A DNA stretch of 64,000 nucleotides, from the NCBI GenBank assembly GCA_951406725.2, contig OX597817.1, positions 119,970,001 through 120,034,000 on the forward strand, given 5' to 3'. Below are positions 3,993 through 27,977 of this stretch, in pieces. The notes beneath the pieces are model-generated. The model made no database searches and was not told the DNA's origin. It worked only from the letters and a program-made list of their open reading frames with translations. The position numbers and the translations under genes are program-made. This DNA comes from Octopus vulgaris. Taxonomy: Eukaryota. Each line of letters begins with the position of its first letter. The stretch's first letter is position 1.

Positions 3993-4728
3993 AGAAGGAG
4001 GAGGAGGAGAAGGAGGAGGAGGAAGAAGAAGAAAGTGGAGGGGAAGAAGAAGTAGAGTAGTGTCAATACTCAAGCAACAGAAGTGGTATACCCAGCAAGA
4101 AAACCATACTTTCCATCATAATTAGTACACCTCTGTTACAGATAATATTTATCTGTATGATTTTCATGTCTTTCTGACAATAGAATGCATATTCATTGGC
4201 TGTGAACTTCAGCTTTATGCATTTAAGAACACACAGATAGAATGAAGACTATTTCACAAACTGAAGGAATGACAAAAAAGTATAATTGAAAAACAGAATG
4301 AACGGAACAATTAGCTGATTAGAAAGAGGATAAATCGATAATAATCAAAAATAACTGTCAAATCTAGTAAGCAGTTCTCTAAAAGAAAAAAGAAATGTTA
4401 GAGACCATTTAGTCCTGAATTTCCTAATTTAAAGAACCTCAATAAGCAAAATAAAAATAATTGCTGATATGCAAAATGTATAAATTAGAAAATTAAAAAA
4501 AAGCAGTATTCTTATATTTGTATATAATGAATTACCAGAAATATATAAAAGAAATCTGTTTCATCTCAGCTATATTTATAACAATCTTAGAATCCAAATA
4601 TATGGATGGCATGTATTGGAAAGGAACTTCCACTTAAAAGTTGTTCACTCTTGATAAACTAAAGCCATTTGGAATGTACACATCTTTTCACCAACATATC
4701 CATGTATGACATCATACATGTGTACAAA

Positions 4729-4836
<108 letters not shown>

Positions 4837-5250
4837 GACGATACATACACACAAGATATAAGAAGCCTTCAGAAGTGAGCAGAATAATATATATTAATAA
4901 ATTAATAAGAGATTACTGTCAAAAGAAAATGTTTATTAATAAAAGTTCACTGTCAGTGAAAATAAAAATATAAAACAGAACTGAGTTTATTGATTAAATC
5001 TAGCATTTTCATCCATCTTGGGACTTTGTAAAGTTATTGCCAAGAAACGTTATTATTTGTTTCTCTTTAAGTGAAGCAGGTATGCATTCACTTTCAAAGA
5101 AAATTTGCTTATAAATGATTTCCTATTTCTTTCTGCTATTATGGATCATCTCAAGAACATTTATCAAAATGAAATATTTTCATTTTGCTATTCCTGCAAA
5201 TTGTTAGATAATTACTAACAGGTATTTTTCGGACACACACACACACATAT

Positions 5251-5685
5251 TACCTCTTTTACTTCTTTCATTCATTAGACTGTGGCCATGCTGGGGCCAC
5301 AGCACTTTGAATAACTTTTAGTTCAAGGGGCATCACCTTGAAGAACTTTTAGTCATATGAACTGACTACAGTATTTTCTTTTAAGCTTCATACTTATTCT
5401 ATCAATATCTTTTGCTGAACCACTAAGTTACAGGGATGTAAACATACCAACACCAGCTGCCAAGTGGTGGGAGACAAACACACACAGAGAGAAAGAGACA
5501 CACACACACATATATATATGCACATATGTATATATGATAAGCTTCTTTCAGCTTCCGTCTACCAAATCCACTCACAAAGATTTGGTCAACCCAAGGCTAT
5601 GCTAGGAGACATCCAATGTATCACACAATAGGACTGAACCTGGAACCATGTGGTTGGGAAGCAAGCTTCTTACCACAGAGCCACA
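5251..5685 (-). mobile_element. SINE family A, diverged full-length copy
   Basis: Aligns in reverse to 13923-14336. Confidence 0.8.
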
Positions 5686-5710: not shown

Positions 5711-5867
5711 TGGTGCAAGTGTGGTTCTATGATTTGAAAGTTTGTTTCCAAACCACATGGTCTCAGGTTCAGTCTCACTTTGTGGCAACTTGGGTGTCTT
5801 CTACCACAGCCACTTGCTGACCAAAGTTTCGTGAGTAGATATGGTAAACAGAAACTGAAAGAAGCCA

Positions 5868-5870
<3 letters not shown>
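5711..5870 (+). mobile_element. SINE family A, 5' half, ending in (TA)n 5871-5916
   Basis: ccacatggtctcaggttcagtctcac...ctgaccaaagtttcgtgagtagatatggtaaacagaaactgaaagaagcc. Confidence 0.7.
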
Positions 5871-5921
<51 letters not shown>

Positions 5922-6622: not shown

Positions 6623-6697
6623 ATACACACACACAAACACAATTTCAGTATGGAAGGTGTTTATGTGCCGTTTAAAAACAGATGGAAAAAAATTTGA

Positions 6698-6742
6698 GTC
6701 AAAATATTTTCAGCGCTTTGAAATCACAACCTGTTCACTGAC
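6698..6742 (-). ncRNA. Type I hammerhead ribozyme motif, G3:C8 variant (left arm)
   Basis: guca-GUGAACA-g-guugu[gauuucaaa]gcgcu-GAAA-auau-UU-ugac; stem II is decayed. Confidence 0.5.
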
Positions 6743-6767
6743 AAAACTTCATGTTGCATGAAGTTTT

Positions 6768-6812
6768 GTCAGTGAACAGGTTGCAGTTTCAAAGCAATGA
6801 AAATATTTTGAT
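6768..6812 (+). ncRNA. Type I hammerhead ribozyme motif, G3:C8 variant (right arm)
   Basis: guca-GUGAACA-g-guugc[aguuucaaa]gcaau-GAAA-auau-UU-ugau; palindromic stem III. Confidence 0.55.
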
Positions 6813-6944
6813 ACAAAATAAATTTAAATGTTGAAGTGAATCTAACGGTTTTTTGTGTGTTTTTAAATGGCTTAGAAACACCCCAATGTTGAAATGGTTT
6901 TGTTTCAGCACACGATCTCATATATATATATATATATATATAAT

Positions 6945-7272
6945 AATAATAAATATTAGGGAATAAATCCAAATTTACAGGGAAAAATCAGATTTAGGAT
7001 TGAATCCAATTTTATAGTAAAATATTATATAATATTAATTAGAGACAAAACCACTATTTTGCAAATCAAACAAAGAGTTATCAAACAATAAGTTATGAAA
7101 ACTTAAAATTGAATAGAAGATCTGAAATCCACCTGATGAATGTCCTTAGAAGAGACACGAAACAATTGTAGTGGCAAATTTAATTTCATTTAATTTATAT
7201 TAAATTTTTTTATGTATTGGATTAAGTCTTTCTTTGTTTGATTTGCAAAATAGTGGTTTTTTCTCTAATTAA

Positions 7273-7277
<5 letters not shown>
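6945..7277 (+). mobile_element. Penelope-like pseudo-LTR with inverted partial copy, inserted in (TA)n
   Basis: About 47-bp inverted repeat 7031-7076 / 7231-7277; internal hammerhead; (TA)n on both sides. Confidence 0.7.
7129..7174 (+). ncRNA. Type I hammerhead ribozyme
   Basis: ccac-CUGAUGA-auguc[cuuagaaga]gacac-GAAA-caauug-UA-gugg; predicted cleavage after GUA at 7170. Confidence 0.8.
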
Positions 7278-7640: not shown

Positions 7641-8756
7641 TCACACACGAGTAAGTGAACAAATGAAAGAAAGTAGTACTCAATACATTTGGTTTGAGTT
7701 ACAGATTTTAAAAATTTGACTTAGATACTCACAACTTGCAGTAACTCTCAACCAAATATCTACATTTCTTCATTTCTTCACTCACTCGCATGTGCATGCC
7801 TGCATGTGTGTGTGTGTGTGTGTTTGTGTGTGTTTGTATGTGTGGATATGCCTGCCTGTTATTCTAAACACTTACATACAATATACACATGTACACACAT
7901 ATTTTTAGCAAAGATCTATCATATTACAAACAGCATGCATGTGCATACATACAAGTGTGTGTGTGCTTGTGTTTGAGCTTGCATTTACAACAATAGTTAA
8001 ATGATAAATGGTTATGAACAATGTCACTCCTAAGGTGTGTATTTTGAGTATGTCACTTACCCCTGTCATCACATTATTAGGTTGAACATGATTAACTATC
8101 TCTTAAACAGTCTTAACCAGCTCTGTGGAAGCTGAACAACTTGCAATTGTGTAACAACAATACAAATATCAACAGAACAGTAATTCAAATTGTTGTAGCA
8201 TGTATATGCAGTATACATGCATACACCAACCATCAAAATATCTGATACTGCCAGTAATTTGTAACATGAATATTCAACATAGTAGTTTCTTATGCTATTT
8301 TTGATTTTAATGTGATGACATTCAATCTATTCCCATGTTGATGTATATTCATTAATAATTTATTCTCTATCAAGAAAACAGTTGTAATTCTAGCGTGGAA
8401 GGTGTTTATAAGCCATTTATAATAAACTGTAATTGCTTTCGCTTGGTTTACCTAACATATCTCACAGTAAATACAGCCTCAGTTACTATCAAAACTATTT
8501 CTGCCTTTAATTTTCTAATACAATAATACATGAAATATAAAACATGTGAATATATATAAAAAAAAGGTTCTGTTAAAATTGTGAAAATATTTGATAAACA
8601 ATCAAATAATCTACATGATATGAGTCTCCTCCTAAATTGATACTTACACTTGATAACACTATAAATCAAAAATGTTAGTAAATTCTTACTTAAAATAATT
8701 ATCAATTTTCTTCAAAGTATGACAAACAAAAGATAGAAGAAAAGCTATAAACTCTC

Positions 8757-9229
8757 CCCTTTCTCAACCATTTTTGCCTATAGACCCCTTTGATTCCTAG
8801 TTCACTCAAGTGGACTCTCATAACTGTTCAAAGTTTAAACAAATCATATTATAAAAGATATCTCTTAATTTTTCTATTCGTTGCTCAATTCTACCTTCTT
8901 TCAATCTTAGCCTTTGGTTTCCCCATTGATAAATTGCTAATCCCCCAAGTATCACCTTCTTCTACCTGTTCATTCTTTCCTCCTAGCTCAGCTTTACTTC
9001 TCTTTGCATAGCACCCTTTCTCACCATCCTACTATGGCGTCACCCTGTTATCTCTCTATACTAAATCATATTATATCTTTATACTTAAATATTATGCAGA
9101 ATTGTATAAAAAAAAATTTTAATATTTTGTGTGTTGTAGAAGTATAACAAATTTATTGCACATAAATTTTAACAACAAAATCTTCTATGATTACTCAAGG
9201 GTCTTCTGGACCCTGGTTGAGAACCACTT
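8757..9229. mobile_element. Decayed hAT-like MITE
   Basis: Ends ttctcaacc... and ...ggttgagaaccact are inverted and resemble CAGTGGTTCTCAACC-type hAT termini; the left end is decayed. Confidence 0.45.
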
Positions 9230-27350: not shown

Positions 27351-27885
27351 TTAACACAGCTCTTTAAATTTCATGAAAACATATCCGTTTCTTTTGACAG
27401 TTGCAAACAATGATGTCATATGCTTAGGTATAGTCAAATATCCAGACAATTCTTACAAAATGAAAGATCTTGCTTTTCAGTACAAACTGCATTTTGGCAT
27501 TCTGACTTCCTAAAGAAGAGTAAATAAATGATTACTACTAATGATATACTATCAGTGAAAACTCTTGCAATTAGTGTAATCCCACGAGGTATTATTCTTA
27601 CATGCCTTATCATGCTTGTTTCAGTTCTTCTCACATATACACATATACGTACTAATAAATAGATATAGATAAATATGTTTGCATAGAACATTCTGCTGTT
27701 CCTATATGTATGGTGTTATAATATGTGTTTCTTACTGAAATTTAGTATCATAACAGCAATTCAGTATCATAACAGAAAACAGGGACTGTACTGTTCTATA
27801 TCTAAGAGATGAGGAATTATGTACATTATTTACATTACTTACATTATTTACATTCGACGGATATTTGTCCTCATCTTTGTTGTTA

Positions 27886-27929
27886 ACACAACATTTCAGC
27901 TGATATACCCACCAGCCTTCTTCAGGTGT
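27886..27929 (-). ncRNA. Minimal type I hammerhead ribozyme (left arm)
   Basis: acac-CUGAAGA-a-ggcug[guggguauau]cagcu-GAAA-ug-UU-gugu. Confidence 0.7.
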
Positions 27930-27977
27930 CTTGGGGAAATTTTGAACCTGGGTTCTCATTCCTAAGGTATTCTTCGA

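Follow-up and report, generated by a model that had tools for sequence, protein, structure and literature searches.

Minimal hammerhead ribozymes (min-HHRs) lie in the pLTRs of metazoan Penelope-like elements, PLEs (Cervera and de la Pena, 2014; PMC4209133). The natural exchange of the 3-8 pair given there is U3-A8, and position 3 is C or U in all 56 representatives of its Fig. S3; the passage on natural covariation at this pair in Perreault et al. (2011; PMC3088659) names U3-A8 only. For PAc (Poseidon of Anolis), Frangieh et al. (2024; PMC11167929) describe a double change, C3G/G8C, that partly restores the cutting abolished by either single change. By the account in the same paper, cutting by the Penelope hammerhead needs the element's protein, hammerhead mutants insert as well as the wild type in vitro, and a one-sided tail is explained by two internal reverse-transcription starts. 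The C-terminal EN+ PLE clades are Penelope/Poseidon, Neptune, Nematis, and Hydra (Craig et al., 2021; PMC8557442).

The locus compared with these systems is a palindrome in a 64,000-nt stretch of Octopus vulgaris DNA (the window), animal DNA that is AT-rich and microsatellite-rich, from a genome of 2.8 Gb. An inverted-repeat search of the window found a 61-nt repeat (6693-6753 / 6757-6817) with arms 89% complementary; by alignment the arms extend past a gap to about 6641 and 6880, the left arm being short by ~35 nt. The 301-nt palindrome stretch folds into one hairpin at -120.1 kcal/mol (z -12.6), and 0 of 100 shuffles folded as well. Judged from its sequence, the palindrome is a head-to-head pair of 5'-truncated pLTR end pieces of a Penelope-like retrotransposon with a one-sided tail, and the window copy is decayed. 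Its features, and those of a related fragment of the same repeat family (family A), are as follows.

6641..6753, minus strand: left arm, a 5'-truncated pLTR piece that ends at the short 3' end (element position ~150) and has a ~35-nt internal deletion
6698..6742, minus strand: minimal hammerhead motif of the left arm (G3 6738, C8 6733, extra G 6731, G12 6711, U17 6702)
6754..6756, no strand: inversion centre, a 5'-to-5' junction that varies from copy to copy
6757..6919, plus strand: right arm, a 5'-truncated pLTR piece that reaches the 3' tail and ends at about element position 170 of 209, with (TA)n after it
6768..6812, plus strand: minimal type I hammerhead motif of the right arm, from sequence, pattern scan, and pairing
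6768-6771 / 6809-6812, plus strand: right-arm stem I
6772 (G3), 6777 (C8), 6778 (A9), 6779 (extra G), and 6799 (G12), plus strand: right-arm core
6780-6784 / 6794-6798, plus strand: right-arm stem II, with a G10.1-U11.1 wobble in this copy
6802-6807, plus strand: right-arm stem III, palindromic, with the predicted cut after U17 (6808)
6867..6919, plus strand: start and first codons of the parent frame (start codon 6867-6869), with a stop at codon 3 in the window copy
8386..8419, minus strand: separate short fragment of family A, element positions 114-148 at the short 3' end, 91% identical over 35 nt (E 1e-7)

A preliminary description had reported a palindrome with a G3:C8 hammerhead-type core on both arms and a related fragment at about 8385-8420, and both are present. 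Read outward, each arm gives stem I (GUCA..UGAY), the core GUGAACA, an extra G, a five-pair stem II, GAAA, AAUAUU, U17, and the stem I partner. The layout described earlier had the stems, core, GAAA, and AAUAUU right and omitted one G, which separates A9 from stem II (6779 in the right arm, minus-strand 6731 in the left) and is the known extra base of Penelope hammerheads. The two motifs are no dimer arrangement: the arms lie on opposite strands and, as an inverted insertion, amount to one fact copied twice. Left-arm stem II has one mismatch and three wobbles. The family A form of this stem is GUCGC/GCGAC, from which the window arms depart at CpG sites, as expected if the mismatches arose by CpG decay. 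The lowest-energy fold of the young parent motif consists of stems I and II, whereas the window arms alone fold otherwise. Because each strand has one motif enclosed in a long hairpin, with G10.1-U11.1 and arms that lack a stem I/II fold of their own, folding predicts that this window copy is probably silent.

The family A motif agrees with the min-HHR consensus given in PMC4209133 save at positions 3 and 8. Like the min-HHRs described there, it has a stem I of 4-7 bp in a U-rich/A-rich frame, an extra base at 9/10.1 (G in family A, H in that consensus), G10.1-C11.1, a short palindromic stem III, a place in the pLTR, many truncated copies, and opposite-strand pairs; stems I and II, the extra base, G10.1-C11.1, and the palindromic stem III are all present in family A. 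Among 59 arms not chosen on their core, U4, G5, A6, A9, G12, A13, A14, A15.1, U16.1, and H17 are found in 93-100%, and all stand in both window arms; in place of the consensus C3 and G8, 58 of the 59 have G3 and 52 have C8. An Rfam scan of the window returned nothing at the gathering score, but Rfam also overlooks a motif with a canonical core (7129-7174), and the swap by itself therefore does not explain the miss. Our search of the literature text returned no natural G3:C8 hammerhead; figures and a key survey lay outside its reach, and the absence is weak. The swap is a laboratory mutant in PAc (PMC11167929) and the natural state of young family A.

Abundance had been suspected, and at least 2,885 arms in the genome match a 29-mer across the motif (2,755 with G3 and 130 with another base at position 3; reversed controls 0). 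DNA similarity search, with the best 40 of 1,992 candidates scored, gave 82 matches. The common unit is 209 bp with two alternative 3' ends, 145 of 378 extracted arms ending at 209 and 128 at 146-154. Among the first 30 loci of contig 1, 19 have an inverted arm next to them; six of these 19 derive from duplication of a single larger stretch, which reduces the count to 14 of 25 events. The six (L119, L120, L130, L131, L133, and L142) carry one palindromic insertion with kilobases of common flank, a larger duplicated or mobile stretch. Head-to-head pairs (n = 113, a sample partly biased toward palindromic loci) comprise 73 with a short and a tailed arm, 26 with a tail and another end, 2 with two tails, and 12 without a tail, giving exactly one tailed arm in 99 of 113; their junctions vary. 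Insertion sites are often in (TA)n, and single arms also occur. This is the known Penelope layout, with an inverted 5'-truncated copy, a tail at one end, and two internal reverse-transcription starts; the palindrome is therefore an insertion by-product, ordinary for PLEs, rather than an independent unit. At subfamily-marking sites the two arms of a palindrome disagree in 11% of cases, a value lying between those for ordinary sites (4.6%) and for shuffled pairs (25%), so some insertions may have been copied from two RNA templates. Pieces of pLTR are also caught in tandem arrays at L239 and L242, with periods of about 2.6 kb and 3.4 kb.

Several ideas about the ends of the unit were tried and dropped. 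A hard 5' end without any longer element was overturned by 617 upstream-motif matches, which led to longer copies and the parent. For an intron removing positions 33-160, most of the ribozyme, the 12 matches to the joined pattern were one precise joint, two near ones, and nine ordinary loop variants. A spliced leader had been suggested by loose ends of RNA-like contigs, and these ends are the reverse complement of upstream sequence in palindromes; the assembled RNA-like contigs cover the first 35-80 bases only and carry nothing on transcript ends.

On the features of their sequence, namely an RT/GIY-YIG frame, tandem pLTRs, and an inverted truncated copy, the parents of family A are a Penelope-like element of the C-terminal EN+ type. 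The frame encodes a reverse transcriptase and, at its C-terminal end, a GIY-YIG domain (Pfam E 9e-5); YVDD and the preceding RT motif were found by eye, and the Pfam RVT_1 profile gave no match to the family A frame. Its relatives are named reverse-transcriptase-domain proteins, the closest named one being annotated from Octopus vulgaris. A protein search, with the best 150 of 3,229 candidates scored, separates a young group at 94-95% identity from a second group at about 59%. Five young-group loci, whose open frames span 646-1,025 aa, carry ten motifs, every one of them G3:C8 and identical to the others, and 12 arms of young frame-bearing loci lie 0.4% from the family majority. The pLTR is continuous with the frame at L289, L292, and L300, the start codon falling within the 209-bp piece, and L275 has a pLTR (4720-4925), a frameshift-broken frame, and a second pLTR (8981-9182), with motifs 4.26 kb apart. 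None of the 23 matches to the N-terminal part of family A is a fully intact copy.

As in PAc (PMC11167929), the frame begins inside the pLTR close to the ribozyme, the tail is defined by two 3' ends, and targets are AT-rich; the start codon lies ~60 nt after the ribozyme in family A, whereas in PAc it lies within stem II. The order of RT and GIY-YIG, partial tandems, inverted 5'-truncated copy, one-sided tail, and (TA)n targets are shared with the EN+ PLEs described in PMC8557442, and ahead of GIY-YIG there is a short CxxC-x7-C linker similar to that in the Nematis rows of Fig. S2 in that paper, the spacing being compared by eye. The protein is longer than in the elements of PMC8557442 (~1,070 aa summed from pieces in family A, 1,310 aa in a sister family, B), as is the tail (~57 nt in family A vs. 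30-40). The most frequent GIY-YIG family, of 781 aa, was considered as the parent and is not; some of its relatives carry a U3:A8 motif. A third PLE family (L152, L154, L155, L158, L163, L169, L176, and L180) carries, 440-950 nt downstream of GIY-YIG, a minimal hammerhead of the U3:A8 kind that lacks the extra base, and at L175-L176 the RT frame is preceded by a second open frame.

Protein similarity, and not a ribozyme pattern, led to family B, which is young. It shares 54% identity over 815 aa with family A, has open frames of 1,310-1,312 aa at three loci, and carries pLTRs on both sides of the frame in the same layout. Its motif at the matching place is C3:G8 with C for A at position 9 (L279:3245-3290; L278, L280, and L285), and this C, a further natural variant of the core, is why it escaped the motif scan of frame-bearing loci. 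The earlier proposal that GUGANCA is a double swap of the 3-8 pair is borne out by this comparison: between A and B both sides have changed in the 3-8 pair, one stem I pair, one stem II pair, and the stem III pair 15.2-16.2. With these double changes, the hammerhead fold and its swap against the sister family are well supported at the sequence level. A six-row alignment (two window arms, parent A, family B, and two sisters chosen by a stem-fixing pattern) has 97% of 72 cells paired (slid controls 20-50%) and 5 of 12 pairs changed on both sides; the rows are related, three being of one family, and the 97% should not be read as a probability. In a metagenome relative (41% identity), a canonical C3:G8 motif follows the frame. 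The 3:8 pair is G:C in family A and C:G in family B and L311, and is broken in a minority of family A arms. From these comparisons, C3:G8 is likely the ancestral state and G3:C8 the derived one.

A search with a scaffold pattern that has Y3/R8 yielded 65 matches (0 for the control), 4 of them mutated family A arms and 61 other repeats; pattern-chosen sister loci show family A homology beyond the ribozyme at z of at least 3 in 7 of 20 cases and below this in 13. A supposed second family with G3:C8 on the same stems, but with a stem III that begins with G, was rejected, all 14 matches being family A.

Conservation of the core above its flanks, which the preliminary description had expected, is absent: in the 59 arms not chosen on their core, the core is 0.975 conserved vs. 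0.974 for free positions. Inserted copies decay neutrally, so this check cannot discriminate. Among 29 ribozyme positions, 1 shows a subfamily-level change (U-A becoming a U-G wobble), vs. 10 of 65 others, which is not significant (p 0.16). The first 100 G3 arms listed have C8 in 94, T8 in 4, and G8 in 2, and the first 100 non-G3 arms listed include 9 with C3, one of which has G8; with a single C3:G8 arm among these 100, a C3:G8 subfamily within family A was rejected.

Position 8, one of the three whose invariance was to be checked, varies: a G8 pattern finds 243 arms. Among the 100 of these listed, 96 have G3 and hence an unpaired G3:G8, on every loop-II background. Five palindromes have G8 on both arms, and G3:G8 occurs in tandem copies as well (e.g., L314, L333, and L303). 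G8 makes up 2/100 to 5/59 arms in unbiased samples vs. a C-to-G background of 0.8%, and of the partner arms at 28 G8 loci, 2 also carry G8, 4 clearly carry C8, and 3 probably carry C8. Arm divergence is 0.029 for G3:G8 vs. 0.023 for G3:C8, which gives no order in time. From the excess over background and the palindromes with G8 on both arms, it follows that the unpaired core was sometimes copied, and that 3-8 pairing is not needed for mobilisation; the G3:G8 lineage is one copied with a predicted dead ribozyme. Such copying is in keeping with a ribozyme that mobilisation in trans can do without, and it supplies a stepping stone linking C3:G8 with G3:C8. Core drift in these elements is also apparent in the C at position 9 of family B.

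We give a probability of about 0.7 to the reading that the locus is a decayed palindrome of Penelope end pieces whose G3:C8 minimal hammerhead is likely, in the parent, a weak self-cutter assisted by dimer formation or by protein. The parent RT/GIY-YIG protein would nick AT-rich DNA and copy pLTR RNA from two internal starts, which, by analogy with the in vitro behaviour of another Penelope element, would leave one arm with a tail and one without. The source of most short copies is probably a capped transcript whose start lies ~19 nt upstream of stem I, as an extra 5' G suggests: among 21 arms ending just before AGATG, 12 carry a G at a place occupied by C or T in the parent, and junction microhomology can explain 2 of the 12. 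The sequence upstream of AGATG resembles a branch point and 3' splice site, and in Drosophila Penelope an intron ends at helix I (PMC4209133); either signal, cap start or splice site, may therefore be in use. In tandem parents, two same-sense motifs ~4.3 kb apart are predicted to pair through the self-complementary AAUAUU of stem III and to cut weakly after U17 with help from protein. The palindrome arms, on opposite strands, would form no dimer within one transcript. Cutting is likely not required for being copied.

The same origin is compatible with a motif that is a dead or near-dead relic, in which G3, unpaired and inactive, was fixed first, C8 arose later through drift or hitch-hiking, and only protein binding, promoter, or splice signals have kept the fold. 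We regard this as unlikely, though as a serious competitor. It would account for G3:G8 arms on all loop-II backgrounds, some of them copied, for the loss of A9 in family B, and for the non-significant subfamily-change test, and it agrees with the lack of effect of hammerhead mutants on insertion in vitro in PMC11167929. Yet the core departs from consensus at just two positions, which form the one tertiary pair and have changed in a complementary way, G3:C8 is the state of all ten motifs in the young loci with frames, and compensating pair changes between families extend to stems I-III.

Readings that change the origin itself fare far worse. Closure of a circular RNA, cut and joined at the hammerhead as in retrozymes, would suit the small size and type I hammerhead, but the ends of copies lie ~35-40 nt upstream of the predicted cut site and 90 or 150 nt downstream of it rather than at the site, and head-to-tail 209-bp arrays were not seen in the loci examined; we consider it very improbable. 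That the palindrome is itself mobile, as a MITE or fold-back DNA element with an incidental likeness to hammerheads, can hardly be right. The inverted arm at 19 of the first 30 contig 1 loci, six with one common junction, would speak for it, but the junctions otherwise vary and the six share kilobases of flank from a larger duplication, the ends are asymmetric with a tail on one side, and the single arms and frame-bearing parents contradict it.

Beyond the decayed end-piece palindrome with a weak parental self-cutter, we hold only tentatively, at somewhat less than even odds, that this is a young Penelope family with a natural G3:C8 hammerhead whose cutting is under selection, with a copied G3:G8 stepping stone and a capped 209-nt pLTR-only RNA as a minimal non-autonomous element. 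If so, it would be the first natural case of the laboratory swap that proved the 3-8 pair, and a path across a fitness valley would be readable in a ribozyme core. Should G3:C8 cut, the natural hammerhead core would be widened, and searches fixed on C3/G8 or U3/A8 would undercount ribozymes. One genome with G3:C8, G3:G8, C3:G8, and U3:A8 would be a panel for whether Penelope elements need ribozyme cutting.

The window holds other repeats as well. The motif at 7129-7174 (plus strand) is a canonical C3:G8 minimal hammerhead of Penelope type, with an extra A and a longer palindromic stem III, and sits within an inverted repeat (7031-7076 / 7231-7276; 46-nt arms, 98% complementary) that is another inverted insertion. 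A canonical-core minimal hammerhead candidate with an 8-pair stem II lies at 27875-27930 (minus strand; 0-1 matches in shuffled windows), and at 5510-5668 / 5738-5896 a different short repeat, also abundant, forms an inverted pair of 159 nt (77% complementary).
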